64,000 nucleotides of DNA from Candidatus Pelagibacter sp. TMED166 (GTDB lineage: Bacteria; Pseudomonadota; Alphaproteobacteria; Pelagibacterales; Pelagibacteraceae): contig NHHP01000001.1 of assembly GCA_002171015.1 (NCBI GenBank), forward strand, positions 4,641 to 68,640, read 5' to 3'. The position numbers and the translations under genes were made by a program. The first letter of the stretch is position 1; each line of letters begins with the position of its first letter. The notes below the pieces were generated by a model. It saw nothing but the letters and a program-made list of their open reading frames with translations, was not told the DNA's origin and searched no databases. This document shows positions 1,862-54,676 of this stretch, in pieces.

Positions 1862-2361
1862 TGTCAAGAAACGCAAGAGAAATAGACTTAGACTCAAGAA
1901 GTTATGTAGGACTATCATTTCCTTTGCGAGCGGATTCCAATAATAATTTTCAGATGACAAAAAATTCATTGGAACAATCGAGACATAATCTTAGGAATCT
2001 TCTACTAACATATCCTGGCGAAAGAGCTGGTAATCCTACTTTCGGTTCTAGATTAAGAGAAGTTTGTTTTGAACAACATGATGAATCCCTACCACAAAAA
2101 ATAGAGGATGTAATTTTGAGTTCAATCAATACTTTTTTACCTTATATAAAAGTTACAGATATAGAAACTTTGACCGATGAAAACCAAAACGAAAAAATAT
2201 TTGTAAAAATAAAATACACCACAACACTTGACCCAACTTTGAATCAAACTCTAAATTTAAACGTCACCGAAGCAACCGAGGTTGGTGGTGGACAATCATC
2301 GGGTGGTTCAGGTAGACCTAGCGGTGGTTCTGGTGGAAGCTCAGGTGGCGGAGGATACTAA
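1861..2361 (+). CDS. baseplate wedge protein, gp25/GpW family, with Gly/Ser-rich C-terminal tail
   Basis: LSFPLR...SLEQSRHNLRNLLLTYPGERAGNPTFGSRLREVCFE matches the GPW/gp25 signature (..L.T..GER...P.FGS.L....F). The tail is GGGQSSGGSGRPSGGSGGSSGGGGY. Confidence 0.8.
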   Translation: MSRNAREIDLDSRSYVGLSFPLRADSNNNFQMTKNSLEQSRHNLRNLLLTYPGERAGNPTFGSRLREVCFEQHDESLPQKIEDVILSSINTFLPYIKVTDIETLTDENQNEKIFVKIKYTTTLDPTLNQTLNLNVTEATEVGGGQSSGGSGRPSGGSGGSSGGGGY

Positions 2362-4349
2362 TGGCTAGAACAAGTGTACAGAAAGATTCGGTAAAATCTA
2401 TCAATTATTTGAATAAAGACTTCAATGATTTCAAAACAAACTTGGTTGAATTTGCAAAACAATACTTTCCAAATACCTATAATGATTTCAATGAAGCATC
2501 ACCAGGTATGTTATTTATCGAGATGGCAGCTTATGTTGGAGACGTTTTATCCTACTATATTGATTCACAATTCAGAGAGTCTTTATTGGCTTATGCCGAG
2601 GAAAAAAGAAATATTTATAATATCGCACAATCATTTGGATACAAACCAAAAACAACATCACCATCAGAGGTCGTGTTAGATGTGTTTCAAACCGTGCCAG
2701 CTTTGAACGGACTACCTGATTTTAGATATTCATTGACGATAGATGAAGGTACACAAATAAACGCTGGTTCCAATGGAACAACTTTTCGTACGTTAGAAGA
2801 TGTAAATTTTAAATTTTCAAGTTCCTATGACCCAAGAGATGTGACGATATTCGAAACCGATTCAGGTGAACCAACAAAGTTCTTGTTAAAGAAAAAGGTA
2901 AAAGCCAGAAGCGGAGAAATCACAACAGAATTTTTTGACTTCGGTACTGCTGAAAAATACACACAAGTAAGACTTTCTAATCCTGATATCATTGAAATAA
3001 TATCTTGTACAGATAGTGATGGTAATAAATGGTCTGAAGTTGATTCCTTGGCAAGAGATACTGTATTCGAAGAGATGGAAAATAACTCAGCCAATGACCC
3101 ATCGTCAGTAGGTGATAGAGAATCATCATCGTATATTTTAAAACTAAAGAAAGTTTCTAGAAGATTCACGACCGTGATAGATGAAAACGACAGAACTGTT
3201 ATGAGATTCGGTGCTGGTGTATCTGATAATCCTGATGAGGAGATTGTTCCCAATCCAACAAACGTAGGTTCGAGTCTACCGGGTAGTCCGAGTTTCTTGA
3301 CGACGGCATTCGACCCTTCAAATTTTTTAAAAACAAAAACATTTGGTTTAGCACCAGCCAATACCACGTTAACAATAGAGTATTCTTATGGTGGTGGTAT
3401 CGATGACAATGTAAATGTCGGTGATGTAAATCAACTTGGCCCGATAAGTTTTACAGTCAATGAAAATAATTTATCAGCACAACTCGTACAAGAATCAAAA
3501 GATTCCGTGAGTTTTACAAATCCAAAACCAGCAACTGGTGGTTCTTCAGGTGAAACAATCAGAGAGACGAAGGAGAATGCATTGGCTTATTTTCAATCAC
3601 AACAGAGAGCGGTCACCAAGGATGACTATATAGTTAGGGCCTATTCATTACCGCAAAAATTTGGAACTGTTGCTAAGGTTCACATGTCTCAAGATGAACA
3701 ACTAAGTAAGGTCGGAATGGCCGAGATGTTGGACAGAGAAATTATAGAATCTGATTTAGGAACTAATCTGAAAGATTTACAAGTAAATAATATACCTAAT
3801 CCTTTGGCGATGAATATGTATACCTTGGGATTTGATGGTAATAAAAAATTAACAAATTTGACTCCTACTACAAAACAAAATCTTAAAACTTATCTAAGCC
3901 AGTACAGATTGATTACCGATGCAATCAATATTAAAGATGCTTATATTATAAATATTGCGATAAAATTTGCAATATTGACTAAAATTGGTTTCAACAAAAA
4001 CGAAGTGTTGTTGAGATGTGTTTCTGTGGTACAAGATTTTTTCGATATCGATAGAATACAAATCGGACAACCTATTGTATTGGCAGATTTAGTATATGAG
4101 ATTTCTTTGGTCGATGGTGTTGCAACTGTTGTGAACCCAACGGAAAACAATCCTAGAAATCTACCGATTGTTGTAGAAAATAAATTTCAATTAGACCAAG
4201 GTTATTCAGGTAATTTCTTTGACATCAATACATCATTAAGAGGTGGAGTTTTATATCCAGCTCTCGACCCAAGTATATTTGAAGTCAAGTATCCTAATAC
4301 AGATATAAGCGGTAAAGTATTGGGTGATAACTTAGGTGTTAGGGAGTAG
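2361..4349 (+). CDS. baseplate protein, gp6 / GpJ (Baseplate_J) family
   Basis: 662 aa (T4 gp6 is about 660 aa). The N-terminal segment FNEASPGMLFIEMAAYVGDVLSYYIDSQFRES is typical of Baseplate_J proteins. It directly follows the gp25-like gene, as in T4-like and P2-like baseplate modules. Confidence 0.8.
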   Translation: MARTSVQKDSVKSINYLNKDFNDFKTNLVEFAKQYFPNTYNDFNEASPGMLFIEMAAYVGDVLSYYIDSQFRESLLAYAEEKRNIYNIAQSFGYKPKTTSPSEVVLDVFQTVPALNGLPDFRYSLTIDEGTQINAGSNGTTFRTLEDVNFKFSSSYDPRDVTIFETDSGEPTKFLLKKKVKARSGEITTEFFDFGTAEKYTQVRLSNPDIIEIISCTDSDGNKWSEVDSLARDTVFEEMENNSANDPSSVGDRESSSYILKLKKVSRRFTTVIDENDRTVMRFGAGVSDNPDEEIVPNPTNVGSSLPGSPSFLTTAFDPSNFLKTKTFGLAPANTTLTIEYSYGGGIDDNVNVGDVNQLGPISFTVNENNLSAQLVQESKDSVSFTNPKPATGGSSGETIRETKENALAYFQSQQRAVTKDDYIVRAYSLPQKFGTVAKVHMSQDEQLSKVGMAEMLDREIIESDLGTNLKDLQVNNIPNPLAMNMYTLGFDGNKKLTNLTPTTKQNLKTYLSQYRLITDAINIKDAYIINIAIKFAILTKIGFNKNEVLLRCVSVVQDFFDIDRIQIGQPIVLADLVYEISLVDGVATVVNPTENNPRNLPIVVENKFQLDQGYSGNFFDINTSLRGGVLYPALDPSIFEVKYPNTDISGKVLGDNLGVRE

Positions 4350-15185: not shown

Positions 15186-16472
15186 ATGTTAAAGAAAATT
15201 ATAATAGGTATATTGTTAACCTCATCTTTGTTTAGCCAAGAGATTATACTAAACTTTTTTAAGTATTCCACAGCTTACGCTAGTTTTAGTTTAAACGCAC
15301 CGAGACACCAAGATGATAGGTTTTCTATCGTTGGTGGTTTGTCTACGGGTGTATTGGAATTCAAAAGGGATGAGAGAGAACTCGAAGCAGACTTCCAAAA
15401 ATCTTTTGGTTTGAGAAAGATAGGTAGATTTAAATACGAGCCTAAACGTGGTGTTAAGAACGCCGGTAAAGGTGGTATGTGGTATGATGGTTCTGAACAA
15501 TCAGCTAACGAGATGGCTACATTCGGACCTGTAAAGGGTTGGGAATACTTAGTCAAATGGACTGAGGGTCGTCAATGGGGTGATGATTACGTTAATCAAG
15601 AATACTGGCTACGATATGTAGGTGATTGGTTTATGATTAAAGGTGGTTACACCGAACTTGGTTTAGAGGACGTTTTATATTCACAAGGTGATGCTAGATT
15701 AAAAAAATCAATAGGCCCTATTCATATGAGTGTTGGATTGAAACACAGACAGCATCCTGTATATGGATTCGATGCTGTGATATTAGACACCACTTGGTAT
15801 AGAGGACAATGGTGGAACTTTGCTGAAGATGCATTCGGTATAGATGATAACGCTTGGTTTACTGAAGAATATTACAACAATGGTGACGGTAACCTTGACC
15901 AAGACATCCAATTATACGAGATAGACCCAATAACAGGTGAGCTCAGACACATCGAAGGTGGAGGCCCATTTTGGAATGACGATGGTAGGTTTGTTGGTGT
16001 TGATTGGTTGTGGAGAGATACTGAAGGTCGTATCTTTGCTTATACAGATAGAGAATATTTCTTATATCACTTTCCTGAAATGTTAGAAAATTATATCAGT
16101 AGAGTAAAGAAAGATTTAGGATACCAAAGAGAAACATCATTTGTAGTTGGTTTAGATTTTTATCACTATGATGAGAATTGGTGGGCACATGCTTGGGGTA
16201 ACTATATACCTTATCATTATGGTCACGATGTTTATTCGTATCATAACGCAGCTGCTTATGAGGAACACAAAGAAAATAAGAATCCACCACATACTTTTAA
16301 ATTCGGAGAATCAGGTTGGAAAGGTTGGGATGATTATGATGTAGGTGCTATCGTCGGTATTAAAGTAAAAGACAACTTCGGTATATTCGCTGAAGGAAAG
16401 TATCTTTACTATTGGAATAAACCAGCTTATGATTTTAAAGTAGGTGCTAACTATCAATTTGTAGGATGGTAA
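15186..16472 (+). CDS. predicted outer-membrane beta-barrel protein
   Basis: 428 aa with an N-terminal signal peptide (MLKKIIIGILLTSSLFSQ) and W/Y/G/D-rich composition. It ends in ...FKVGANYQFVGW, the C-terminal aromatic signature of BAM-inserted barrels. Confidence 0.55.
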   Translation: MLKKIIIGILLTSSLFSQEIILNFFKYSTAYASFSLNAPRHQDDRFSIVGGLSTGVLEFKRDERELEADFQKSFGLRKIGRFKYEPKRGVKNAGKGGMWYDGSEQSANEMATFGPVKGWEYLVKWTEGRQWGDDYVNQEYWLRYVGDWFMIKGGYTELGLEDVLYSQGDARLKKSIGPIHMSVGLKHRQHPVYGFDAVILDTTWYRGQWWNFAEDAFGIDDNAWFTEEYYNNGDGNLDQDIQLYEIDPITGELRHIEGGGPFWNDDGRFVGVDWLWRDTEGRIFAYTDREYFLYHFPEMLENYISRVKKDLGYQRETSFVVGLDFYHYDENWWAHAWGNYIPYHYGHDVYSYHNAAAYEEHKENKNPPHTFKFGESGWKGWDDYDVGAIVGIKVKDNFGIFAEGKYLYYWNKPAYDFKVGANYQFVGW

Positions 16473-17075
16473 ATGAACGGTGATATTAAAATAGGTAAGT
16501 TACTTTGTGATGAGGATATCATCACCAAGAGACAATTGAATCAAGCTCTTCAGGCTCAGATAAAAGGTGATAAAAGAGCCTTGGGTGAGATACTTGTTGA
16601 TAAGGGATTCTGCACCTTAGATGATATTACTGGTGTATTAATGGATGAACCTGTACACGAGGTCAAAAAAGAAAAGGTAGCTAAAAAATCCAAGGATAAG
16701 AATGAGCCGGTTGAAATAAGTGAAGAAAAGGTTATGGGCACCAAATTCACGATGTCGGTTCAAACTATCGGTGCATTGGTTATGGTGATAGCTAGTGGTG
16801 TCGGTGGTTATTATATGTTACTACAAGAAATACAAGAAGCTAAAGAACTTCCAAAGATTGATATAGAAGCAATCTACAAGGATGAATACCCATCAAGACC
16901 TGAAGGACATAACTGGCCAAGGTCTAAGGAACAATACAACCAACAGGTTGGAGACTTACAAGATGATATGGATACTGTATTTGATAGGTTGGATGAGTTA
17001 GAAGATGATGTTAAAGATTTAAAAAAGTTAGTAACAGATTTACGAGTTCAAGTAGCTAACAAGAGAGATAAGTAG
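16473..17075 (+). CDS. membrane protein with MshEN / T2SS-E N-terminal-like domain and acidic coiled coil
   Basis: Residues 6-59 form two 24-aa units, KIGKLLCDEDIITKRQLNQALQAQ and (R)ALGEILVDKGFCTLDDITGVLMDE, separated by about 5 aa. They resemble the tandem RLGxxLLxxGLLxxxxLxxxLxxQ motif. One TM follows (IGALVMVIASGVGGYYMLL), then a coiled-coil tail. Confidence 0.45.
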   Translation: MNGDIKIGKLLCDEDIITKRQLNQALQAQIKGDKRALGEILVDKGFCTLDDITGVLMDEPVHEVKKEKVAKKSKDKNEPVEISEEKVMGTKFTMSVQTIGALVMVIASGVGGYYMLLQEIQEAKELPKIDIEAIYKDEYPSRPEGHNWPRSKEQYNQQVGDLQDDMDTVFDRLDELEDDVKDLKKLVTDLRVQVANKRDK

Positions 17076-17084
17076 GAGAGTAGA

Positions 17085-17459
17085 GTGAGATATTTTATTG
17101 GATTATTATTTTTCTTATCTACAATGGTAGCTCAGGTTACAGATAAGAATTTCAAAGACAAAATAAGTGATGGTTTTTCAGTAATCGTATTTACTTCCGA
17201 ATGGCAAGAAAAAGAATTGGATACTAAGATATTAGATGGTGTAAAAGGGTATGAGGATGCTAAAATTATAACCGTCAAATCTGGAGACACAAAGAAGGTA
17301 ATTAAGAAACTAAGAATAAGAAATTTTCCATCTATTGCTTTATTTCATAATGGAGATAAGGTAGATGTTTGGAAAGCTGATATGGATGGTGAAGTCGATT
17401 GTACTGTATCTGATATAAAAAGAGCGGTAGATGACTTTAATTCTGGCGATGTCTTCTAA
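17085..17459 (+). CDS. exported thioredoxin-fold protein lacking the CxxC active site
   Basis: GTG start after AGGAGAG, with signal peptide MRYFIGLLFFLSTMVAQ. VTDKNFKDKISDGFSVIVFTSEWQEKE...IRNFPSIALFHNGDKV aligns with the thioredoxin pattern (VTD.NF...V..F.A.WCGPC...IR..PT..LF.NG), but WCGPC is replaced by WQEKE. Confidence 0.65.
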   Translation: MRYFIGLLFFLSTMVAQVTDKNFKDKISDGFSVIVFTSEWQEKELDTKILDGVKGYEDAKIITVKSGDTKKVIKKLRIRNFPSIALFHNGDKVDVWKADMDGEVDCTVSDIKRAVDDFNSGDVF

Positions 17460-17773
17460 TGGATGCTAAAGATTTAACAACAAAAGATGCAAGACAAAAT
17501 CAAAAACATTTTATAAATGTCAAATTAGTAGACCTAATTGAATATAGACAATCTCGTAAGTGGTATGTAAGTATTGCTGTGGTTGGTATGTTTGCATTTA
17601 TATTAGGTCTTATGATATTTTTTATGGGCCAAGGTAAAGATGTTACTGAGGGTTGGAAAGAAATTCTCCTACTTATGTTAGGTGGATTCGTAGGTTCGTT
17701 TGCAAAGGTTATTGATTTTTGGTTTAACAATCAAGAGAATGATAACAAACTCTTGGAACATGCGGATGACTAA
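17459..17773 (+). CDS. small membrane protein (two TM helices)
   Basis: 104 aa with hydrophobic stretches WYVSIAVVGMFAFILGLMIFFM and ILLLMLGGFVGSFAKVIDFWF. TAATG coupling at both ends. Confidence 0.55.
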   Translation: MDAKDLTTKDARQNQKHFINVKLVDLIEYRQSRKWYVSIAVVGMFAFILGLMIFFMGQGKDVTEGWKEILLLMLGGFVGSFAKVIDFWFNNQENDNKLLEHADD

Positions 17774-17988
17774 TGAAGAAAAAACATTTGGTGACTTTAG
17801 TAAGAACAATAAAAGATATACTATACGCTCATAGAAAAGCTGATTGGGATGATAAAAATGTTGTAGAAACTGTATCCGAGGTTATAACTAAAAAGTTCTC
17901 AAAATACATGAAAGAACAAGAAGACTTAGAGAGAATGGGTAAGACTGAACAAGATTATCTTGCTCCACCAAATGGGTTAAATCAATGA
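17773..17988 (+). CDS. hypothetical protein
   Basis: 71-aa ORF, coupled to its neighbours (TAATG upstream, ATGA downstream). Confidence 0.5.
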   Translation: MKKKHLVTLVRTIKDILYAHRKADWDDKNVVETVSEVITKKFSKYMKEQEDLERMGKTEQDYLAPPNGLNQ

Positions 17989-18638
17989 ACATCGCTACAT
18001 TAGCTGGACACCTTGCATTTGGATTAATTGCATTTTCATTTTTAGTCAAAGATATTTTTTGGCTTAGACTATTATCGATAGCGGCTAGTTTATTTTCTGT
18101 ATTTTACAATTACACGATACCAACAGAACCAATGTGGTTAGCAATCAATTGGAATTTTATATTCATCTTAGTAAATCTATATCATATCGGAGTAATTCTC
18201 TACGAAAAACGTGAAGTTAAAATGGGTGATAAAGACGAGGAACTCTATCAAACTTTATTCAAAGAAATGTCACCAGTAGAATATCTGAAAATTAGTCGAG
18301 CAGCTAAATGGGAAACACTCAAACCTGGTCAAAGAATCATAACACAAGGTATACAAGTACCAGATTTGTATCTTATTTACAACGGAACTGTTGATGTTGA
18401 GATTGATAATGAACATATAACACAACTTAAAGATGGAGAATTCGTTGGTGAAATGTCATTTTTAACAGAGAAAGTCGCAACCGCGACTTGTAAAGTAAAG
18501 TATGAAGCTCAATGTTTGGTTTGGAAACAAAGAGAGTTCAAGGAGTTATTGAAACGTAATCCATCTCTATATTTCACAATACAATCCGTTTTGAGTGCTC
18601 AGGTATCCAATAAACTAGTAAGTAGTACCAAAAAATAA
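17985..18638 (+). CDS. three-TM membrane protein with C-terminal cyclic-nucleotide-binding-like domain (Popeye-like architecture)
   Basis: 217 aa with three N-terminal hydrophobic helices. The C-terminal part LKPGQRIITQGIQVPDLYLIYNGTVDV...LKDGEFVGEMSFLTEKVATATCKV...FKELLKRNP fits the cNMP-binding beta-roll (G..FGE.s.l......At..a). The canonical phosphate-binding Arg is not present. Confidence 0.6.
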   Translation: MNIATLAGHLAFGLIAFSFLVKDIFWLRLLSIAASLFSVFYNYTIPTEPMWLAINWNFIFILVNLYHIGVILYEKREVKMGDKDEELYQTLFKEMSPVEYLKISRAAKWETLKPGQRIITQGIQVPDLYLIYNGTVDVEIDNEHITQLKDGEFVGEMSFLTEKVATATCKVKYEAQCLVWKQREFKELLKRNPSLYFTIQSVLSAQVSNKLVSSTKK

Positions 18639-18679
18639 GTTTGACGATATTTATTAAAGAATAACTATAGGGATAAGTG

Positions 18680-19207
18680 ATGGTAAAATTAAAAGAATTG
18701 TTAAAAGAATCTCTTGAAAGAAAGTTTGGTGAGCCTTTAGCAACCTTAGATGGTGTGATGAGGGATTATCAGTTGGGTAAACTTTATACCGATAAGGATA
18801 AACCACCTTTCAAGACCGATAAACAAATCCAAGAAGAATTAAACGAGGATGGACATACCGATGTACCGTCATCTATTAGAAAATTGAAAACATCGATTGA
18901 GGATGCCAACGAAATAATAGGTAGGTTACAATCAATGTCCGACGAACAACCACTTCCGAGTTGGTGGAGTGATAAGATTACCTTATCAGCGAATTATTTA
19001 AATAAAGCTCGTGATTATATTTTGAATCCAAATGAATCGGTGAATGAACGTTCCAACCCTAGTGATAAAAAAGAACTTCTCAGAGCTTTGAAAAACTCAA
19101 AAGTAGCTGATGCTTTTTCATTAAACAACGATGAGCTAGTTATAGAGATGACTAGTCCATCAGGTACAGACTTCGTAGTCGGTAATATAAGGAAGTATAA
19201 AGGTTAG
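18680..19207 (+). CDS. leader-family protein 1 (MVKLKELLKE...)
   Basis: The ORF track starts at GTG 18677, but ATG 18680 gives MVKLKELLKESLERKFGEPLATL. The leader and the FGEPL motif are shared with the 21591 ORF. Confidence 0.65.
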   Translation: MVKLKELLKESLERKFGEPLATLDGVMRDYQLGKLYTDKDKPPFKTDKQIQEELNEDGHTDVPSSIRKLKTSIEDANEIIGRLQSMSDEQPLPSWWSDKITLSANYLNKARDYILNPNESVNERSNPSDKKELLRALKNSKVADAFSLNNDELVIEMTSPSGTDFVVGNIRKYKG

Positions 19208-19209
19208 TA

Positions 19210-19923
19210 ATGATAAAGTTAAAAGATTTACTAATAGAAGCACCTAAGATTAAAAAAATAAAAAATGTTTCGGTTCAATATATGGATGCTGAATATGTTG
19301 GTAGTGTAGATTTCGAACCTGTCAGAAAAGCTTGGGTATATAAAAAGGATAAACCGAAAGATAATTATTTTCTAGACGTTATAACTAAAACAAAAAATAA
19401 ATATCAAATAGATTTAGGTAAACATAGAAACTCTGAAAGTGCAAAGAAATTTGCTAGTGGGTATTTGAAAAGAAAATTTACATCAATGGAATCCATTAAA
19501 GAAACAGTATCACACCGAATATTAAGACTATCTAAAGATGGTGCTTCTAAACAATTTCTTAGAGACTTCGATAGAGTGTTTAAGAAGAAGTCTAAAGAAT
19601 TAGGTTATGGTAAATTGAATAAGGACGTTCAGACTCTTAATGTTCAAGTTTCTAAACCAGCAGGTTTTGATAAACCTATTAAGTATGAAAAGATGAAAGG
19701 TATCCAAGTCAGCTATCAATTTGATGAAGGGGTAATACCAGGTAGACCATCTTACAAATATTCATTGGATGATTTCAAAAAAGATTTAAAAAAGTTCAGA
19801 GGATATAAAATAAAACAGGATTTACCAGTGATATTTACCTTAACCAAAGGTGACTTTGCGTATAGTGTAAATTACATTGGGGCTATAAGTGGTGTATTTG
19901 TAATTGGTGGCACAAGAGTATGA
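19210..19923 (+). CDS. leader-family protein 2 (MIKLKDLLIE...)
   Basis: 237-aa ORF with the conserved N-terminal leader. ATGA overlap with the next gene. Confidence 0.65.
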   Translation: MIKLKDLLIEAPKIKKIKNVSVQYMDAEYVGSVDFEPVRKAWVYKKDKPKDNYFLDVITKTKNKYQIDLGKHRNSESAKKFASGYLKRKFTSMESIKETVSHRILRLSKDGASKQFLRDFDRVFKKKSKELGYGKLNKDVQTLNVQVSKPAGFDKPIKYEKMKGIQVSYQFDEGVIPGRPSYKYSLDDFKKDLKKFRGYKIKQDLPVIFTLTKGDFAYSVNYIGAISGVFVIGGTRV

Positions 19924-20300
19924 TTAAACTAAAAGACCTTTTAAAAGAGGGTATAATAAACTCAACACAAAATAAGTTAATAAAGAAAGGTGAATCTTTA
20001 TATAAAAAACTTATGAAAAAATATGATGGTGACAAACAAAAAGTAGAAAAAGAAGTAATTTCTACTTTAAATAAAGATCCTCTAATTAAAAAATTTGTCG
20101 GTGTAGATGCTGTCAGTAATGATTACACAAGATATAGGATAAAAGGAAATGTTGAAGTTTATAAGTTAGAAAGTGGAGGATATCCTATTTTTTATGCTGA
20201 TGTGGTAACACGTGGGTATGATGCTAAAACAGGTAAAGATATTATAAATAAAAAAGTTAAAACAATTAATTTATCAAGAGAATTTGATAGATATCAATAA
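19920..20300 (+). CDS. leader-family protein 3 (MIKLKDLLKE...)
   Basis: 126-aa ORF with the conserved N-terminal leader. Confidence 0.65.
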   Translation: MIKLKDLLKEGIINSTQNKLIKKGESLYKKLMKKYDGDKQKVEKEVISTLNKDPLIKKFVGVDAVSNDYTRYRIKGNVEVYKLESGGYPIFYADVVTRGYDAKTGKDIINKKVKTINLSREFDRYQ

Positions 20301-20312
20301 GGTACGGAATTA

Positions 20313-20561
20313 ATGATTAAGTTAAAGGATATACTAACAGAAGCTAAGAAGTCTGATGTAAAGAAGATGGAAAAGATGGCTAATAAGATTGTTTCTGATA
20401 TGAATAAACTTAATAAGATGTTCGAAAAAATTCATGACGCTCGAACCAGTAATCCAAGTGCTTATCGTACGTTGAAGGATTGGGAAATGGTGGCAACCGA
20501 CGCAAGCGGAAAATACGGTGGTTGGTTCGAATATGTATACGATAGTGATAACGTGGAGTAA
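20313..20561 (+). CDS. leader-family protein 4 (MIKLKDILTE...)
   Basis: 82-aa ORF with the conserved N-terminal leader. Confidence 0.6.
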   Translation: MIKLKDILTEAKKSDVKKMEKMANKIVSDMNKLNKMFEKIHDARTSNPSAYRTLKDWEMVATDASGKYGGWFEYVYDSDNVE

Positions 20562-20563
20562 TT

Positions 20564-21427
20564 ATGAGTAAATCAATAAACGAAAATAAAGTTGAAAAGG
20601 AAAAAATTTTCAAAATGTTGGTCAAACGAGGAGATACTCCTATAGATGCTCGGTATGAGGTAAATAAATCCTACGATTTTGTAAAAAAGAGATATCCCAA
20701 AGCATCAGTTTCAAAAAAAGCCGAAATTATTTCTAGCTTATCCAAATTTGAATCCGTCAAAAAAGAAGGTACCTGTGGTTACGGTGAAAATGGTGAGTTA
20801 GGTGAAGAACCAGCCGGCCCACATCTGTTGAAGAAAACCGAAAGTAGGACAAAATCATTGGGTGAAAAGGATTTGATGAAATATCTGATGAAAAGGTTTA
20901 AGTTCAGCAAAAAGAAAGCTATTGGTACGATGAAGAAAGCTGGTTTCGATACATCCATGTTGAAAGAACAATCAGTTCTTGAAAAGTGTCAAAAAGGATA
21001 CATGACACATCCTACTCGTAAGACAAAAATTTTATTCGGTAAACGATATCCTAATTGTGTGAAAAAAGAAGGCGTTGATACGATGGTCACGGTTGAACAG
21101 GCTGGTAGATTACTTGATAATCTTTGTATCAATTGTGGTGATTTTGCTAACGAAGATTTAAGGAAATGGTTTAAACAGAAATGGGTTAATATAGGGAAGA
21201 AAACAAAGTCTGGTAAACACCCAGCGTGTGGAACTAGTGGTGAAAAAAGAGGATACGCTAAATGCGTCCCAGCTTCCAAAGCCGCCAGTATGTCGAAGAA
21301 ACAAAAAGCAAGTGCTACTCGTAGAAAGAGGTCTGCACAGAACAAAGCCGGTAGAGGTGGTAGAGGAAAACAAGGTGCAGGAGCACAAGGTAGAAAACCA
21401 ATAATGGTTAAGACCGATAAAAAATGA
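20564..21427 (+). CDS. basic protein with Cys-containing short modules (C..GY...PNCVK; WF..KWV...CG...KC)
   Basis: 287 aa. CQKGYMTHPTRKTKILFGKRYPNCVKKEG is paralogous to a segment of the 22504 ORF. It has an RGG/KQG-rich basic tail. Confidence 0.65.
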   Translation: MSKSINENKVEKEKIFKMLVKRGDTPIDARYEVNKSYDFVKKRYPKASVSKKAEIISSLSKFESVKKEGTCGYGENGELGEEPAGPHLLKKTESRTKSLGEKDLMKYLMKRFKFSKKKAIGTMKKAGFDTSMLKEQSVLEKCQKGYMTHPTRKTKILFGKRYPNCVKKEGVDTMVTVEQAGRLLDNLCINCGDFANEDLRKWFKQKWVNIGKKTKSGKHPACGTSGEKRGYAKCVPASKAASMSKKQKASATRRKRSAQNKAGRGGRGKQGAGAQGRKPIMVKTDKK

Positions 21428-21594
21428 TAAAAGAGTTAAAAAAAATTTTAACTTGTGGATGTCAAGATATATTTACTTTAGAGATGATAGAAGAAAAAAA
21501 ATGGAGCAAAAAGTATAAACGGTCAATCAATTGTAACAACCCAAAAGGATTTAGTCAAAAAGCACATTGTGCTGGAAGAAGGAAAAGAAAATGA
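21424..21594 (+). CDS. small leader-family protein 5 (MIKELKKIL..., 56 aa; not in ORF track)
   Basis: ATG at 21424 overlaps the upstream stop (ATGA), and the stop at 21592-21594 overlaps the next ATG (ATGA). Product: MIKELKKILTCGCQDIFTLEMIEEKKWSKKYKRSINCNNPKGFSQKAHCAGRRKRK. Confidence 0.55.
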   Translation: MIKELKKILTCGCQDIFTLEMIEEKKWSKKYKRSINCNNPKGFSQKAHCAGRRKRK

Positions 21595-22043
21595 TAAAAT
21601 TAAAAAAAATAATCAAAGAAACCAAATATTGGGAAGGACGTAAGTTTGGTGAACCACTTCCGACTTTGAAATTGGAACAAGAAGAGCCAGAACATTTCGG
21701 TGGTGGTGAAAACATCGATATATTGGGATTCAAGACAGAGCATTTCGATATCTGTAAATCTGCTGTTATTCTTTACAATAAATTAAAAGAAAAAGATTTA
21801 AATGACACAGCTAAAAAACTAGTTTTATCTTCAGCAAAAGAATTAGACCATTTATTCGAAATGGAAAAAGATGTCGTTGCTGGTAAGAGTCTAGACCATG
21901 ACCCATTGGAACATGGTATTGAATTGGTAAATATAATATCATTTCAACTAGGTAGGGTGGCTGAACTTATCAACGAAGATTTTGAACGTGACACAAATTT
22001 TCTTAAACTACACTTATTAGAAATCGTCAAAAGGAGTAAGTAA
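21591..22043 (+). CDS. leader-family protein 6 (MIKLKKIIKE...)
   Basis: The track ORF begins at 21567, but ATG 21591 gives MIKLKKIIKETKYWEGRKFGEPLPTL. That start matches the other leaders and forms an ATGA overlap with the 56-aa ORF. Confidence 0.65.
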   Translation: MIKLKKIIKETKYWEGRKFGEPLPTLKLEQEEPEHFGGGENIDILGFKTEHFDICKSAVILYNKLKEKDLNDTAKKLVLSSAKELDHLFEMEKDVVAGKSLDHDPLEHGIELVNIISFQLGRVAELINEDFERDTNFLKLHLLEIVKRSK

Positions 22044-22174
22044 TGGATAAATATAATAAATCAGTACAACATAACTGATTCCATCACGCGACTTGGGGGT
22101 CTCCCAAAAGAAAAAATGAGGGTATAGGAGATGTAATTTGGCATTCCCTAACCGAAGATGGTAAGGTTGAAATA

Positions 22175-22501
22175 GTGGATATCAGATTTGGTAACACTAT
22201 ATATCGAAATGTAAGTGTAAATAGATTAAAACCTATTGATGAGGCATCACATTCTCATCCTAGGTCTGGTAAAGAGTTAGACGATAAAAAGAAAAAGAGA
22301 AATAAAATGACAAAAGAGATAGCAGAACAAAAATTAAATTTATTCCTTGAAAAAAATGTTCCTACGAATCCAGCAAAATGGTCGTATTATAAATCTCAAG
22401 CAAAGAAAAAGTTTGATGTTTATCCATCCGCTTATGCCAACGCATGGGCTGCGAAACAATATAAAGCCGCTGGTGGTGGATGGAGAAAAACCAAAGGGTA
22501 A
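22175..22501 (+). CDS. basic protein with PSAYANAWAAKQYK motif; start uncertain
   Basis: The only start in the open frame is GTG at 22175. The frame stays open upstream to an in-frame TGA at 22076-22078, which is preceded by a coupled ATG at 22043 (see findings). Confidence 0.5.
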   Translation: MDIRFGNTIYRNVSVNRLKPIDEASHSHPRSGKELDDKKKKRNKMTKEIAEQKLNLFLEKNVPTNPAKWSYYKSQAKKKFDVYPSAYANAWAAKQYKAAGGGWRKTKG

Positions 22502-22503
22502 TC

Positions 22504-22932
22504 ATGGAAGAAGCAAGAGGAACTTGTTGGGTTGGTTACCAACAAATAGGTATGAAAAAGAAAGGTAATAGAATGGTGCCTAACTGTGTAAAAGAAGAGG
22601 TAGAGATTTACTACGAAGAAGGTGGTAAAGGATACGGATACACATTTGAATTTATTACCAATAAGTCCTTAAAAGAAGCGGAGTACCAAGGTAGAAAGGT
22701 AAAGTTAAATAAAATTATGCAAGGTGATGCTAAAAAGTTTAAAGTTTACGTAAAAAATCCAAAAGGTAACGTTGTTAAAGTAAACTTTGGTCAAGGTGGT
22801 GATGCTAAAGGTGGTACAATGAGAATCAGAAAATCAAATCCTAAGGCTCGAAAAAGTTTTCGGGCTCGTCATAATTGTGATAATCCAGGTCCAAAACACA
22901 AAGCTCGTTATTGGGCTTGTCGGACGTGGTAA
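22504..22932 (+). CDS. basic Cys-motif protein (CW.GY...PNCVKEE; RHNC...KARYWACRTW)
   Basis: ATG 22504 lies just after the upstream stop with an AAGGG Shine-Dalgarno (track start is 22480). CWVGYQQIGMKKKGNRMVPNCVKEE is paralogous to a segment of the 20564 ORF. Confidence 0.6.
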   Translation: MEEARGTCWVGYQQIGMKKKGNRMVPNCVKEEVEIYYEEGGKGYGYTFEFITNKSLKEAEYQGRKVKLNKIMQGDAKKFKVYVKNPKGNVVKVNFGQGGDAKGGTMRIRKSNPKARKSFRARHNCDNPGPKHKARYWACRTW

Positions 22933-23069
22933 ATCACCTCAAAGAAAAAAACCTAGGATATTGGGAGCATTGGTGGAAAGCTATGAAGTTAAGTGTCGCT
23001 CTATTTATACACGCATTTTTACCTGATATTTTAACTGATTACGCATCTAAGGAATTGAATGATGATTAA
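22926..23069 (+). CDS. possible small hydrophobic protein (about 47 aa; not in ORF track)
   Basis: An open frame fills the apparent gap. From GTG 22926 (or ATG 22983) it reads ..NHLKEKNLGYWEHWWKAMKLSVALFIHAFLPDILTDYASKELNDD and overlaps both neighbours by a few nt. The start is unproven. Confidence 0.35.
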   Translation: MVNHLKEKNLGYWEHWWKAMKLSVALFIHAFLPDILTDYASKELNDD

Positions 23070-23394
23070 GTTAAAAGAATTATTAAATCACATAAACGAA
23101 AATACAACATATCTTCCGCCAAAATACAGTAGTCCTGAGGTTAAAAGTATGATTGACAATGACATTAAAAAAATGTCAAAGATATTAGGAAAGGCTTCAC
23201 AACAAGTTATTAAAGTAATGATGGATGGTGTCAAGGGAGGAAAGTATGATGCTATGGATATTATCAGAGGTATAGAGACTGGTAACGTAAATAGAACACA
23301 CGAAGGAGAAAGACCTTTTCTGAGAATGCTGTGGAGAAAAGTTAAAAGTGGATTTAGAAGATACTCCAAAGACGGAAGGTTGAGAAAAAAATGA
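23062..23394 (+). CDS. leader-family protein 7 (MIKLKELLNH...)
   Basis: Tandem ATGs at 23059 and 23062. Conserved leader, ATGA overlap with the next gene. Confidence 0.65.
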   Translation: MIKLKELLNHINENTTYLPPKYSSPEVKSMIDNDIKKMSKILGKASQQVIKVMMDGVKGGKYDAMDIIRGIETGNVNRTHEGERPFLRMLWRKVKSGFRRYSKDGRLRKK

Positions 23395-23759
23395 TTAAAT
23401 TGAAAACCCTTTTAGAGAGAGTTGATTATCACTATGAAGCTTCGGAACTCGTTAAGCGTTATGGATTACGGTCTAAGGTTAAAATCGGTACTGGTAAAAA
23501 CTTCGGTGAATATATACCAGAGACTGATACAATTACTATCAGGCCATCTTATCCAAATCTTAAAGAATTCTACATGACTGTTTTACACGAAATAGGACAC
23601 GCATTGGATGCTAAAAGATTAGGACTAAGAAAATATTTAAAGAAATATGTTCAGGCTGGTACGATGGCAACCTACCGTGGTTTAGACCCACATGATGATA
23701 ATAAGTGGGAAGAAAAAGCCGAAAGGTTTGCTAAAAAAGAATTAAAAAGATGGTTGTAG
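23391..23759 (+). CDS. leader-family protein 8 with HExxH zinc-metallopeptidase motif
   Basis: 122 aa, MIKLKTLLE... leader. ...TITIRPSYPNLKEFYMTVLHEIGHALDAKR has the strand-helix-HExxH layout of minimal zincins (ImmA/IrrE- or SprT-like). Confidence 0.55.
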   Translation: MIKLKTLLERVDYHYEASELVKRYGLRSKVKIGTGKNFGEYIPETDTITIRPSYPNLKEFYMTVLHEIGHALDAKRLGLRKYLKKYVQAGTMATYRGLDPHDDNKWEEKAERFAKKELKRWL

Positions 23760-28583: not shown

Positions 28584-28686
28584 ATCTATAATTATCATTT
28601 AACTACTTTTTAACCACTTTAGGAATACTTTCTATTTATTATTTTTGGATATTGATATTTATATTAGATATATAGGAACATTCTAA

Positions 28687-31600
28687 ATGGGATTTTTACC
28701 AAAGCGTTTAACATTACAGAATCTAGACCAAGTAAGTGTTTTCATCGAAGACACCGATAATCAATATTTTAACGTACAACACCTGCCAGAGACCCTAAGT
28801 CAAGGTAGACATGCTTTTAAACTATTTGGCTCGAACTTACTACGTGAAGGGATAGAATTAAAAATGGAGTTACTCGATTCTGAGGGTAACACTATTTTCA
28901 TGACACCTGTTGATTTTATAGGTGAAGAGACCCCACCGCATACCCCATATAGATATGTAACGATTGAAGTTTACTCCCCACCAATAAATTATCCTGGTAT
29001 CGCGACTCTGACCATTCTAGGTGAATTGAATCCTAATTTAGTCGATGTACCTATAGAATTTCAAAATGCGTACAACGTTAGATATCAGGTAGATATTGAT
29101 GTTGATTTATCAACAATTGTTAACACTCAACCTATTAGATTTTTTAAGAATCCAACTACAGAGTTTCAAGAGGTTGTTCAGGCAAAAACAGTACTATCTC
29201 CAATTAGTGAGTCAATTGTAAAGACAACCGCGAACGGATTGACAAGGTCGGATTTAAAAGGTTCGGTCATTGAGATACAATCAGGTAGTCTTGAGAAAGA
29301 AGCTCTACCTAATTCTGTTTCGGATACATTTAAGGATATCAGACGTTTTAAGGATGAGTTTAAATATAAGACAGGTCTAAGAGGTAAGGTTCCTAGCATT
29401 ATAAAAAGACGAGGATTGTCTAGAAGGTTCGCGTCTTTGGAACAACCAAAGTTTAAAATCAAAACATCAGCTGCGACATTTAGATCTGATATGCAGGGTG
29501 GGACGGTAGAAATTGGTAAACACGATGTAAAAATATTCACGGTCGATAGTATAACTGGTCAGACAAAGGAGAAGGTCGTAACCGTACCAAGATTCAAAAC
29601 CAAGATTCTAGAGGTTCTTGATGATAAGACAATCATACCAGAAGAACCACCTATAGTATTTTTACCAACTGGTAGTCAACCTTCAAACACCGACATACAA
29701 GAAGCTACGATAGAGGATTTCTCAAGTGCACCTATTACAGCATCTTTCAGTGCTGCTGATAGTTCACCATCCCAATCAATAGTAAACTTCGATTCCTTAC
29801 TTGATTTAACAATCAAGGATATGAGGACTTTTTCTGGTGATATATATAGGATACGAGTTCATGGAAAAAGTGAGGCTGCTGGTTCAGATTTCACAGTATT
29901 GACTGATGTCATAGTAGAATCACCAGAGTTATTAAAGGATGTAGATTCTCCGTCTGGTGTGCTACGAACAGGTTATTTTATCAATCAGTCACATATCAAT
30001 ACCTATTTAAACAAATTTTCAATGGACGGAACCACCAAGGGTACTAATGTAATATCAAACTATAATTCATCAAACATTATTGACGCTATAAATATTAGTG
30101 GTTCCAACCTAGGTTTGAATCAAAGTGTGGTCGTTGAAACTAAAATAGGACAATCATTTACCATTAGAAAGGATGTTACCTATACTTTATCGGCAAAAGT
30201 TAAAGGACAGATAAAAGACAAAGTTTTAGATGATAGTGGAACTGTTTCAAGAAAAGGTAAATTATATTTCCATCTGTCTGGTTCGAATATAAATGATTCA
30301 TCTCTCGTAACATCTCACAATAGATTTGGGTTTGAACTTAGGGATGAGGCGACCGGAGAGCCTGTTGTTTTACAATTAGATGAAGATATAGATGGTATTC
30401 AAAACTTCGAAACAATAGAACATACTTTTAAACCAAAATTTAATCTAGATAGGACTGTAAACACAGATACAGTCTTACAGTTGAGAGCTGAGTCTGGTGA
30501 ATGGTTTATAAGTGATTTATCTCTTAGACCAGCAATGGACACTGGATTCTCACCTGATGAATTTGATTTAAAAGTTCCGATACCGAGGTCTATAAGACCT
30601 GATAGATTTGATTTTCTAATAGAATATTTTGATATCAACAACAACGTGGCTGAAACCGTTACGGTATTACAAGATGTACCGATATCTGGTTCAGCATTGG
30701 TAATCGATGGTGATGGTAACCTTTTGACAGGATCTTTATTCCTAGGTAACGCTGTTGATTCAGGTATTGAAGCTGCTGGTGTAAACTCGGCATTCGTTAG
30801 GTCTGTTGGATATGAGGGTTTTGAAAGTGCATCTCTAGGTGGTAAGGGTGGATTCATGATTTTCAGCGGTTCTGTCTTACCCGACGCACCTGATAATTAT
30901 GTAGGTGCTGGTATTGAGATACATGATGGAACCACAGGTGTTGATGAAAGTTTTCTAAAATTTAGAACCAATCCATCACAGTTCGATGTTAAGACCTCGA
31001 CATTCTTTTTAGGTAAAAAATTAAATCCAGCAAATTTCATAAGTGGGTCTAACGGTAACCTACAAATATCCTCATCTAATTTTGAGTTGACCGCAGATGG
31101 TGATGTGACGATGTCTGGTGAGATTTCTGCTACTGGTGGAGCAATAGGTGGTTTTGATATCGGTAGTTCAACAATTTCTACCACGGGTGTCGTTCTTGGG
31201 GACTCATCAGAGGATTTATTTATTAGCTCAAGTGCTTTTAAAGTAGACCATAGTGGTAACATAACTGCATCTAATATAGATTTGGGTGGTACAATAAGTG
31301 CTACAAGTGGTGATGTTGGTGGATTTCAAATCAATGCAGGTTCGTTGACATCTGGTACCGGTGATAGTGCGATAACCATGAGTAGTGCTGATAAATTAAT
31401 ATCGATTGGTAGTGGTTCTACTTTCAATAAAGGTGATTTACGAGGTGGGTTTAGAGCCGGAATAGATACCGATGGAGTGTTCAAATTTGCTATTGGTAAT
31501 TCTGATTCATTCATACACGTTGATAACGATGGAGTAAGTATCAAGACAGAGGACATCAATGTTACAGCTTCGTTATTGAATATTGATGTCGATATATTTA

Positions 31601-40942: not shown

Positions 40943-41425
40943 ATGTTAAAAGAATTTAACGATATAATAGAAATAACCCTACATCACGAGGGTGGATATG
41001 TAAATGACCCGAATGATTTAGGCGGAGAAACCAATTTTGGTATCGCTAAACGTTTCTATCCCGACGTAGATATAAAAAATTTAACGAAAGATAAAGCAAA
41101 AGATATTTATAGAAGAGATTATTGGGATAAAAACAAAGTCGATGAGATGCCTGAACAGTTGAGACATATATATTTCGATATGTGTGTAAATCAAGGCAAA
41201 GGAACCGCAGTAAAAGTTTTACAAAGAGCTTGTAATTCCAAGAAAGCAGACCTCAAGGTCGATGGTGGGTTGGGCCCTAAAACATTAGGGGCTATCAAAG
41301 AATTCAATCCATCGCTACCAAGGGTTCGTTGCTATAGATTGAAACATTACTATGATTTGGTGAATAGGAAACCAGAACAAGAAAAGTTCTTATTCGGATG
41401 GTATCGTAGAACAATGGAAGTATAA
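40943..41425 (+). CDS. GH108-family lysozyme (endolysin or virion lysin) with peptidoglycan-binding C-terminus
   Basis: ITLHHEGGYVNDPNDLGGETNFGI matches the GH108 N-terminal signature (EGGY..D..D.GG.T..GI). VDGGLGPKTLGAIKEF matches the PG-binding helical motif (DG..GP.T..A). Confidence 0.8.
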   Translation: MLKEFNDIIEITLHHEGGYVNDPNDLGGETNFGIAKRFYPDVDIKNLTKDKAKDIYRRDYWDKNKVDEMPEQLRHIYFDMCVNQGKGTAVKVLQRACNSKKADLKVDGGLGPKTLGAIKEFNPSLPRVRCYRLKHYYDLVNRKPEQEKFLFGWYRRTMEV

Positions 41426-54490: not shown

Positions 54491-54676
54491 TTGATTTACG
54501 TAAAGGTTTATAAAAATAATTACGAAAAAGCTATAAGTAAATTTAAGAAAAAGGTTAAAGAGTCTAAGTTATTGGTTGAATTAAGAGAACGAGAGTTCTA
54601 CACTAAGAAATCAACCAAACGTAAAGAAAAAAAGGCGAAAGCTAGACTTAGGCAAAAAAATCATATCGAAAATTAA
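54491..54676 (+). CDS. rpsU: ribosomal protein bS21 homologue
   Basis: TTG start 4 nt after AGGAGG. (M)IYVKVYKNNYEKAISKFKKKVKESKLLVELREREFYTKKSTKRKEKKAKARLRQK aligns along its length with bacterial bS21 (..V.V..N.....A...FK........L.E.R.REFY.KP...RK....A..R). Confidence 0.85.
   Translation: MIYVKVYKNNYEKAISKFKKKVKESKLLVELREREFYTKKSTKRKEKKAKARLRQKNHIEN

Follow-up and report, generated by a model that had tools for sequence, protein, structure and literature searches.

A conserved trio of marine phage genes for a predicted outer-membrane barrel, a coiled-coil membrane protein and a thioredoxin-fold protein: a possible spanin-like module associated with lysis

Gene layout of the locus

We analysed a 64-kb window of the contig NHHP01000001.1 (the window being the whole stretch of 64,000 nucleotides), which lies inside a phage genome that reaches >10 kb past both window ends, and we describe here six consecutive genes, A to F, that occupy positions 15186-18638. 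The entire window is densely coded on a single strand, and all six genes are on this plus strand. Gene A (15186-16472, 428 amino acids) encodes a predicted secreted outer-membrane beta-barrel, gene B (16473-17075, 200 amino acids) a predicted bitopic inner-membrane protein, and gene C (17085-17459, 124 amino acids, with a GTG start) a predicted periplasmic thioredoxin-fold protein. These are followed by D (17459-17773, 104 amino acids), whose product has two transmembrane helices and an acidic C-terminus, by E (17773-17988, 71 amino acids), which encodes a soluble protein of no recognisable family, and by F (17985-18638, 217 amino acids), which joins three transmembrane helices to a cyclic-nucleotide-binding (CNB) fold.

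An earlier note on this DNA had described these genes as a translationally coupled operon acting at the host envelope, and all six open reading frames (ORFs) were recovered at the positions that it gave, with the junctions that it read. The stop codon of A is directly followed by the start of B (TAA then ATG, 16470-16475), the C/D and D/E junctions both read TAATG (17457-17461 and 17771-17775), and E and F are joined by ATGA (17985-17988), while a 9-nt spacer that includes GGAG separates B from C. The tight packing agrees with an operon, but promoter and terminator signals do not add to it, since no sigma-70 promoter or intrinsic terminator rose above shuffled controls; from gene packing only, we infer that the six genes are transcribed together. 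The proposal of an envelope module was borne out for every product except E: all of the others are predicted to be membrane, periplasmic or outer-membrane proteins, and E is soluble. In a hydropathy scan of the window ORFs, A-F held all of the transmembrane and signal segments bar one marginal case (a segment scoring 1.65 at residues 572-590 of a 662-amino-acid ORF at 2361-4349), and no small membrane ORFs were found hidden in the intergenic gaps of the window.

Related loci are treated below as two clades. The window clade consists of 43 IMG/VR loci with close homologues of A, and in the second clade the A protein is ~33% identical to that of the window.

Predicted structures of the A, B and C proteins

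Hydropathy analysis placed a signal peptide at residues ~1-18 of A, and the protein ends in a beta-signal that reads ...GANYQFVGW. No match to A was found in Pfam, PHROG, NCBIfam or PADLOC. Searching 1.84 billion representative proteins with a profile nevertheless brought up 258 related clusters at E<=1e-3, and when full-length members that are 25-49% identical to A were aligned with it, the signal peptide and a first strand 'FKYST.Y' were conserved, as was a C-terminus 'G.NY..F' that usually forms the last residues of the protein. A terminal aromatic residue was present in all 101 clade members of A (F or W in 27 of 27, F or Y in 74 of 74). With this diverse alignment, AlphaFold2 predicted 14 long antiparallel strands (predicted local distance difference test, pLDDT, 71; predicted TM-score, pTM, 0.66), with an insert of 123 residues (191-313), mostly of low confidence, between strands 9 and 10; an earlier model from a shallow alignment (pLDDT 44.6) was discarded in its favour. 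When the model was compared with the PDB using Foldseek, 50 of the 50 listed matches were outer-membrane barrels, although with TM-scores of only 0.15-0.55. The best of these was FapF (4e-7), and the others were BcsC, NanC, porins and autotransporter barrels. Against BFVD, one unnamed viral protein matched at E 2e-25, and the remaining significant matches were mostly phage proteins labelled porin or outer-membrane protein (OMP). Within A, conservation is lowest and indels are most frequent in the loops predicted to be extracellular; the strands and the long turn on the periplasmic side are more strongly conserved.

Thus, A has the signal peptide, aromatic beta-signal and even strand number (14) of an outer-membrane barrel. 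None of 26 aligned diverse sequences of its family matched Pfam, no Pfam signal of PorP/SprF, Slam or secretin was found in the family members searched, and A showed no profile match or high TM-score match to named OMP families (porin, FapF, FadL/PorV, PorP/SprF, OmpA and others). On the structural model, A is predicted to be an outer-membrane beta-barrel of a previously undescribed family.

Protein B begins with a domain at residues 6-56 (nt 16488-16640) that passes the NCBIfam model NF053729, the MshE-related domain binding cyclic di-GMP (c-di-GMP), scoring 44.8 bits where the cut-off is 38. This domain is cytoplasmic by prediction and was aligned with the N-domains of PilF, MshE and PilB in a PDB sequence search. 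It is followed by a low-complexity linker of variable length, by a single transmembrane segment at residues ~92-110 (~nt 16746-16817; hydropathy), by a conserved periplasmic stretch YPS[RK]P[ED]G[HY]NWPRS and then by a coiled coil: in the last 50 residues (nt 16923-17072), 11 of 14 a and d heptad positions are hydrophobic, and weak coiled-coil-type Pfam matches (CdvA, DivIC) and heptad-repeat PDB matches were obtained. The only cysteines, at residues 12 and 47, are both in the cytoplasmic domain.

The N-terminal head of B is strongly conserved inside the window clade. In comparison with a motif wording that is reportedly that of Wang et al. 2016, it keeps ~10 of 11 consensus positions of MshEN motif I, with Gly10 replaced by Asp, and motif II in part; it may bind c-di-GMP. 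As in the MshEN domains of MshE, PilB/PilF and NfrB, in which two conserved motifs of 24 residues follow each other in tandem (PMC8669469), the 'LG'-type cores are retained (K-I-G and A-L-G) and the domain model is passed. Those domains are attached to an ATPase or a glycosyltransferase, whereas in B the head is joined to a transmembrane segment that leads to a periplasmic coiled coil.

Protein C matched Pfam Thioredoxin with 28 bits against a cut-off of 23.5, and a profile built from its relatives matched PDB thioredoxins with E-values of 1e-11 to 1e-14 (best 8.5e-14). The CxxC motif is missing: WQEK takes the place of WCGPC, and the cis-Pro is retained. In the second clade, this position reads WNKxN, and the PDB alignment of the relatives' profile set 'WNKSN' opposite 'WCGHC'. 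The signal peptide of C ends in ...AQ, and no lipobox was present in 21 of 21 window-clade sequences and 47 of 61 second-clade sequences. As judged from these features, C is probably a thioredoxin-fold protein but not a redox-active thioredoxin.

The architectures that the earlier note had read from the translations thus held for these three proteins: signal peptide and barrel-type C-terminus in A, on which hydropathy, the terminal aromatics, AlphaFold2 and Foldseek agree; MshEN-like N-terminus, one transmembrane segment and coiled coil in B (NF053729, hydropathy, heptads); and signal peptide with a thioredoxin fold lacking CxxC in C (Pfam, PDB profile search).

A-B-C is a conserved core on two phage backbones

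The order A, variable genes, B, C recurs in several hundred uncultured marine viral contigs, and metagenomic homologues of the trio number hundreds to thousands. To this we can add a scan that was seeded with C and was independent of A, which recovered 345 viral loci. Among the best 79 of these, in which synteny was counted, B immediately preceded C in 78; the flank was long enough to look for A in 65 loci, and in 64 of these A lay upstream of B-C. Start/stop coupling of B and C is usual, with a 4-nt overlap in 38 second-clade loci. Homology between the long and the short form of B, and between the two groups of C, was supported by an hhalign probability of 98.9 in each case.

In the window clade, the order is fibre-like genes, A, c4, B, C and variable genes. 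The gene c4, which encodes a lipoprotein of ~190 amino acids ('SCEDxRVE'), stands between A and B in nearly all of the relatives (for example L001:11282-12040), and some of them have further genes there. It is missing from the window and from locus L023, and in the window the stop of A abuts the start of B; comparison of the loci suggests that c4 was lost in both. In the second clade, the order is A, k1, zero to five more genes, a short B and C. The k1 product is a secreted Cys-rich protein (k1 clusters comprise 76 second-clade ORFs), and the short B (93-131 amino acids) has a transmembrane segment (residues ~17-38) and a coiled coil but no MshEN domain. The MshEN-like head of B therefore appears to be a lineage-specific addition. 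A possible homology between c4 and k1 was dropped (hhalign probability <=5.2). The interval from A to B in the second clade behaves as an insertion hot spot of 0-6 genes, and between A/k1 and B we often observed k22, a phrog_452 endonuclease (L079:11778-12152 and similar), and a two-transmembrane protein of 70 amino acids, k5.

The two clades have different backbones. The window phage is a T4-like myovirus, with Pfam matches to the Gp23 capsid protein, T4 gp13 and gp25, and its terminase large subunit (TerL) and major capsid protein are 51-54% identical to those of Flavobacterium phage immuto, and 51-55% when Microcystis phage Mel-JY01 is included. The backbone of the second clade is podovirus-like; its TerL is 46% identical to that of Flavobacterium phage elemo, and its matches are confined to phages of Flavobacterium, Cellulophaga, Tenacibaculum and Maribacter and three uncultured or Caudoviricetes sp. 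records. The co-occurrence of the three genes, the homology of their products and the C-seeded synteny in both clades indicate that A, B and C probably function as one unit, which has passed between two unrelated phage backbones.

Within the window clade, A, B and C are 60-90% conserved, compared with 30-45% identity for the neighbouring fibre-like genes. F is found in roughly half of the window-clade loci with enough flank, E has a counterpart in only one relative (L001, 63% identity), and the position of D varies among relatives, ahead of A in some and after C or F in others. Gene content thus points to A, B and C as the conserved core and to D, E and F as lineage-specific additions. The view of the six genes as one ensemble did not survive this comparison: only A-B-C is conserved, D floats, E is confined to a single relative, F is present in part of the loci, and c4 has been lost.

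Eight relatives (L017:13339-15308, and L003, L013, L018, L019, L032, L041 and L042) carry 2-4 tandem genes resembling type IV pilins or pseudopilins after A-c4-B-C, and in all 21 of these genes the product has the N-terminus K/R..G followed by FTLIEL and ~20 hydrophobic residues. The pilin-like call comes from this N-terminal motif only, and no TadE or pilin Pfam match was found for the pilin-like c7. After the arrays lie the genes for a secreted protein, c24, and a transmembrane protein, c29. These phage pseudopilins adjoin B, whose N-domain is of the pilus-ATPase type.

The host of these phages is likely a member of Bacteroidota, and probably of Flavobacteriia. The closest cultured relatives of both backbones are mainly phages of Flavobacteriia, and the predicted signal peptides end in a small residue followed by Gln in C (21 of 21 and 62 of 63 sequences), in k1 (72 of 73) and in many A proteins, which is the 'Q-rule' of Bacteroidetes (PMC5837995). 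In addition, acidic residues directly follow the lipidated Cys of the c4 lipoprotein, a stretch that resembles, without fully matching, the lipoprotein export signal of Bacteroidetes (PMC5080379).

Accessory proteins D, E and F

The N-terminal hydrophobic region of F (~nt 17985-18209) shows three hydropathy peaks, corresponding to three transmembrane helices, and its C-terminal domain (~nt 18246-18614) has the CNB fold (Pfam cNMP_binding, 52 bits; POPDC1-3, 54.5 bits), so the membrane-anchored cNMP-binding-like protein that had been read here stands. In the phosphate-binding cassette, the Gly-Glu pair is kept and the canonical Arg is replaced by Ala, as seen in PDB alignments of 'GEMSFLTEKVATAT' with 'GE....RTAT'. 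Ala also occupies this position in all 11 phage variants and 19 cellular homologues, and F, lacking the Arg, departs from the canonical cassette for cAMP or cGMP, G-E-...-R-[ST]-A, of the CAP and PKA type. The cellular homologues, which are found at bacterial genome loci (L125-L166) in Bacteriovoracaceae, Pyrinomonadaceae, Chloroherpetonaceae, Phycisphaeraceae and others, are 38-46% identical to F over its full length, including the transmembrane region. Their family is ~215 amino acids long, with three transmembrane segments and a CNB fold, and nearly all members examined have the cassette G-E-M-S-[FY]-x(5)-A-[ST]-A; no conserved neighbours of these homologues were found, their synteny being lineage-specific only. 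Because full-length cellular homologues share the Ala, F appears to belong to an uncharacterised bacterial family that was acquired by the phage lineage of the window.

Two known types of protein resemble F in part. Like POPDC and other membrane-anchored CNB proteins, F has three N-terminal transmembrane segments followed by a CNB fold, with Pfam scores above the cut-offs. It differs from POPDC, whose signature motifs are DSPE and FQVT, in having neither motif by inspection, and from membrane-anchored CNB proteins in the Ala that replaces the cassette Arg in F and all of its cellular homologues. The CNB domain of F also resembles that of the PycTIR effectors of Pycsar, and its PADLOC matches, that to the PycC model included, are confined to this domain (residues ~101-211). 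However, no partner cyclase gene was recognised beside F, the five neighbouring products having no cyclase match; the gene lies in a late phage region, and the nearest relatives of F are uncharacterised bacterial proteins, so it does not read as a Pycsar effector.

Hydropathy confirmed the two transmembrane helices that had been assigned to D, which has an acidic C-terminus. Its PHROG matches, phrog_1544 and phrog_9990 (E ~2e-5), are both labelled 'unknown function'. Holins are small proteins with one or more transmembrane segments and a charged C-terminus, encoded beside the endolysin gene. D has two such segments and an acidic tail, but these PHROG matches are not to holins and no endolysin gene is adjacent to it; it may be a mobile accessory gene of this lineage whose shape is holin-like or antiholin-like in a generic way only. 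Comparisons of D with the two-transmembrane family k5, and of D or F with the holin family of the relatives, were dropped (hhalign probability <=5.2). No significant match to E was found in Pfam, PHROG, NCBIfam or PADLOC.

Linkage to lysis genes and a spanin-like reading

In the second clade, an endolysin-like gene was found within four genes after C in 31 of 56 loci, and immediately after it in 27; 28 of the 56 loci also have a phrog_3427 holin nearby. The genes concerned matched the M15_3/phrog_894 endolysin (1e-39), phrog_33083 (8.5e-13) and the phrog_3427 holin (1.5e-25). A further sub-lineage has the endolysin-like k51 (phrog_33083) or a DUF5675 gene immediately ahead of A, and a PHROG-endolysin-like gene lies within five genes of the block in 19 of 37 complete second-clade loci. 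In the window clade, a phrog_3427 holin (c25) is within five genes of C in 5 of 19 loci.

An i-spanin is a class II inner-membrane protein (N-in, C-out) with an N-terminal transmembrane segment and a periplasmic domain that is mostly alpha-helix or coiled coil, and its partner, the o-spanin, is an outer-membrane lipoprotein with a lipobox, whose gene lies inside that of the i-spanin, overlaps it or follows it closely; spanin genes belong to the lysis cassette, and disruption of the outer membrane is blocked when they are lost (PMC6139136). Spanins are rarely identifiable in flavobacterial phages (PMC8776804). By prediction, B has both the topology and the coiled coil of an i-spanin. The earlier note had held that none of the six products looks like a lysis protein, which is contradicted by this architecture and by the related phages in which A-B-C abuts an M15 or other endolysin-like gene and the phrog_3427 holin.

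Compared with the two-component spanins of lambda (Rz/Rz1) and T4 (PseT.3/PseT.2), B has the same N-terminal transmembrane segment, N-in/C-out orientation and periplasmic coiled coil; the downstream gene is start/stop-coupled, endolysin and holin genes are neighbours in many relatives, and a trans-envelope span is presumed for A-B-C. There are also differences. The coupled downstream product, C, has a thioredoxin fold and is usually not lipidated, the proposed outer-membrane partner, A, is a beta-barrel of 428 amino acids, B carries a cytoplasmic MshEN-like domain and no periplasmic Cys, and no sequence similarity to any spanin PHROG was found.

Taking these observations together, we tentatively favour the reading that A-B-C is a lysis-associated, spanin-like module spanning the envelope, with a barrel as its outer-membrane partner, while giving it somewhat less than an even chance of being right. 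This function, including the formation of a complex, the disruption of the outer membrane and any binding of or regulation by a ligand, is one that we infer from architecture and synteny only. Besides the co-occurrence of the trio, its presence on two backbones, the synteny with lysis genes and the fit of B to an i-spanin, we count in favour of this reading that the window yielded no canonical o-spanin or u-spanin candidates, that spanins are seldom identified in flavobacterial phages, that the second-clade loci gave no consistent lipobox among their non-overlapping ORFs, and that the outer loops of A vary more than its strands and periplasmic turn. In such a scheme, B would sit in the inner membrane, its N-terminus on the cytoplasmic side and its coiled coil reaching into the periplasm. 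A would be inserted by the barrel-assembly machinery of the host and would serve as the outer-membrane anchor in place of an o-spanin lipoprotein, and C, translated directly after B, would act as a periplasmic partner or chaperone without redox chemistry. After removal of the peptidoglycan by holin and endolysin, the A-B-C complex would bring about destabilisation or fusion of the outer membrane. The T4-like lineage would have added the MshEN-type head to B and recruited F and D beside the core.

Several observations weigh against this reading. The probable endolysin of the window (40943-41425, plus strand), which combines GH108 and PG_binding_3 (Pfam PF05838, 96 bits, and PF09374, 47 bits; phrog_315 endolysin, 1.2e-52), lies 22 kb from the A-B-C module, a dispersal like that of the lysis genes of T4, which are scattered. 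The window and the 10-kb flanks examined yielded no holin homologue. No lipoprotein o-spanin is encoded in the window, and the c4 lipoprotein of the relatives is encoded upstream of B. To our knowledge, no spanin has a barrel as its partner in the outer membrane. In addition, A lacks B-C in the available flank in five second-clade loci, gene content varies between A and B and often includes genes for secreted proteins, which would not be expected of a spanin, and the pilin-like arrays after C in some relatives are not explained by lysis. Clustering of late genes alone could also set an unrelated envelope module beside lysis genes. Finally, B has no periplasmic Cys, unlike most spanins; the periplasmic Cys used for intermolecular disulfides is absent in ~4% of those known (PMC6139136).

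A hidden o-spanin was also considered. The one lipobox ORF of the window lies out of frame within A at 15937-16086, but of 28 relatives only 7 have any lipobox ORF inside A, and 4 of these have it at the same site. Since only 4 of 28 share the site, the ORF is probably a by-product of the coding sequence of A, and it was rejected. In the second-clade loci, no consistent lipobox was found among the non-overlapping ORFs, embedded ORFs not having been scanned there.

Alternative explanations

Superinfection exclusion or receptor masking, which the earlier note had also raised, appears less well supported than a role linked to lysis, and we consider it unlikely. Here, A and the lipoprotein or secreted protein that relatives encode beside it would be displayed on the infected cell and block the receptor or entry route of this and other phages, while B, C, D and F would act at the inner membrane and in the periplasm on incoming DNA or the tail lysozyme. 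The location directly after the baseplate and fibre-like block fits this, as llp of T5 and the cor genes likewise follow the fibre block. Lom and the Lc porin are examples of outer-membrane proteins encoded by phages, and other phage proteins are labelled porin or OMP in BFVD. The predicted outer loops of A are variable, and the genes between A and B, which encode secreted proteins or lipoproteins, are the most variable part of the module. Nevertheless, the difference between the conservation of the core and that of the fibre-like genes given above indicates that A does not co-vary with the receptor-binding genes. The trio is common to two backbones that differ in tail type, a lipoprotein or secreted partner is missing altogether from the window, and frequent direct adjacency to endolysin and holin genes is not predicted by exclusion.

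Llp of T5 and Cor-type receptor-blocking proteins resemble A in that an envelope-protein gene adjoins receptor-binding or fibre genes, but they are small outer-membrane lipoproteins that each act alone on one receptor, whereas the barrel described here comes with inner-membrane and periplasmic partners and is conserved independently of the fibre genes. Lom of lambda, Lc of PA-2 and NmpC of DLP12 are, as A is predicted to be, phage-encoded barrels with a signal peptide, sited beside tail-fibre or lysis genes. These, however, are accessory 'morons' of temperate phages that belong to known host families (Ail/Lom and OmpC-type porins), whereas A belongs to the core genes of marine phages of the lytic type, with 14 predicted strands, no Pfam family and linkage to B-C.

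It is more doubtful that the module is a device for export or anchoring, in which A would be an outer-membrane channel or anchor for k1 or c4, with B and C as accessories, pseudopilins as an extension in some phages and a cargo-free version in the window. The best structural matches of A in the PDB are the secretion barrels FapF and BcsC, but with low TM-scores (0.25-0.46), and no Pfam signal of PorP/SprF, Slam or secretin accompanies them. A gene for a secreted protein follows A in nearly all relatives (k1 in the second clade, c4 in most window-clade loci), and the lipobox and acidic residues of c4 recall the Bacteroidetes lipoprotein export signal (PMC5080379). However, k1 and c4 are unrelated to each other, k1 has no Pfam match to the C-terminal domain of the type IX secretion system, and the window and L023 have no cargo gene, yet their A, B and C are intact. 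The type IV pilin-like genes after C in eight relatives and the N-domain of B, of the type found in ATPases of pili and the type II secretion system, would also suit such a device.

It is very unlikely that A is a plain porin or solute channel, an auxiliary metabolic gene boosting uptake among unrelated small membrane proteins: its Foldseek matches do include NanC, OmpF, OmpG, PorB and chitoporin, and BFVD holds other phage 'porin' annotations, but A is linked almost obligately to B-C across two backbones, has no sequence-family match to any porin and, in the AlphaFold2 model, carries the 123-residue, mostly low-confidence segment between strands 9 and 10.

Other features of the window and its flanks

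Downstream of F, an array of ORFs at 18677-23759 shares the N-terminus M(M)IKLK(D/E)LL, with starts at 18677, 19210, 19920, 20313, 21567, 23059 and 23391, and in both clades there are relatives with homologous 'leader' ORFs (clusters L4 and L7). In the intergenic gaps of the window, the Bacteroidota -7 motif TAnnTTTG has 2 matches, compared with 0.7 expected. One of these, TAAGTTTG at 18636-18643, lies over the stop codon of F, with the next gene 41 nt on, and the second, at 28640, lies ahead of a giant ORF of 4084 amino acids (28687-40941). The GC content of this ORF is 0.40-0.41, compared with 0.32-0.35 around it. The GH108 endolysin gene directly follows the giant ORF and is itself directly followed by a multidomain ORF of 1341 amino acids (41426-45451; AAA_33 kinase-like and cytidylyltransferase-like). 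In second-clade contigs, giant ORFs of 3000-3300 amino acids stand directly before A.

A Shine-Dalgarno core was found within 20 nt upstream of 33 of 60 window genes, compared with a background of 9%. Bacteroidota seldom use Shine-Dalgarno sequences, and this strong usage is unexpected given the Q-rule secreted proteins. An ORF of 61 amino acids at 54491-54676 encodes a homologue of ribosomal protein bS21 (phrog_21469, E 5e-9), and the unusual usage may be connected with this phage protein.

Upstream of the window start, two bitopic proteins without a family match are encoded, one of 200 amino acids (L271:3319-3921, ~6.7 kb upstream) with a transmembrane segment at residues ~31-54, and one of 86 amino acids (L271:8546-8806, ~1.5 kb upstream) with an N-terminal transmembrane segment and a helical tail. 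Both are possible candidates for a holin, an antiholin or a spanin.

Novelty and implications for phage release

The earlier note did not recognise the ensemble as a described system, and searches of Pfam, PHROG, NCBIfam, PADLOC and GenBank phages agree. A, B and F, together with the DNA of the region and two distant relatives of A, matched none of 50,697 GenBank phage records. A freshwater relative, MW202828, was uninformative: it lacks A-B-C and has a different gene of 207 amino acids before its M15 endolysin. The folds of the parts are known. The barrel family, the association of A, B and C, the MshEN head on a spanin-like protein and the phage-borne CNB-fold protein with three transmembrane segments are undescribed in the libraries and literature searched.

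The proposal of control by second messengers fared in two ways. By sequence, the two domains of nucleotide-messenger type, in B and in F, are real; sensing of cAMP or cGMP, on the other hand, is not established, as F lacks the Arg. The MshEN head on B and the recruitment of F suggest that the additions of the T4-like lineage tie the timing of lysis to nucleotide messengers of the host. We know of no earlier case in which membrane proteins of a lysis cassette are fused or linked to receptor folds for second messengers. More speculatively, and with a rather low probability in our estimation, flavobacterial phages would possess a machine for disruption of the outer membrane in which the 14-stranded barrel takes the place of the o-spanin lipoprotein and is linked to B and C, and which, in the T4-like lineage, is gated by host nucleotide second messengers, with the MshEN head responding to c-di-GMP or a related dinucleotide and F to a further ligand. 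The time of lysis would then depend on the physiological or defence state of the cell, and the pseudopilins would be a piston-like elaboration.

Little has been learned so far about the way in which Bacteroidota phages get through the outer membrane, and the trio is a concrete, conserved and abundant candidate on two backbones. Even if the lysis reading is wrong, A would found a new family of outer-membrane barrels, and the module marks a hot spot for envelope-directed genes of marine phages, including those for lipoproteins, secreted proteins, pseudopilins and holins. If the reading is true, the timing of phage release would be linked to host signalling.

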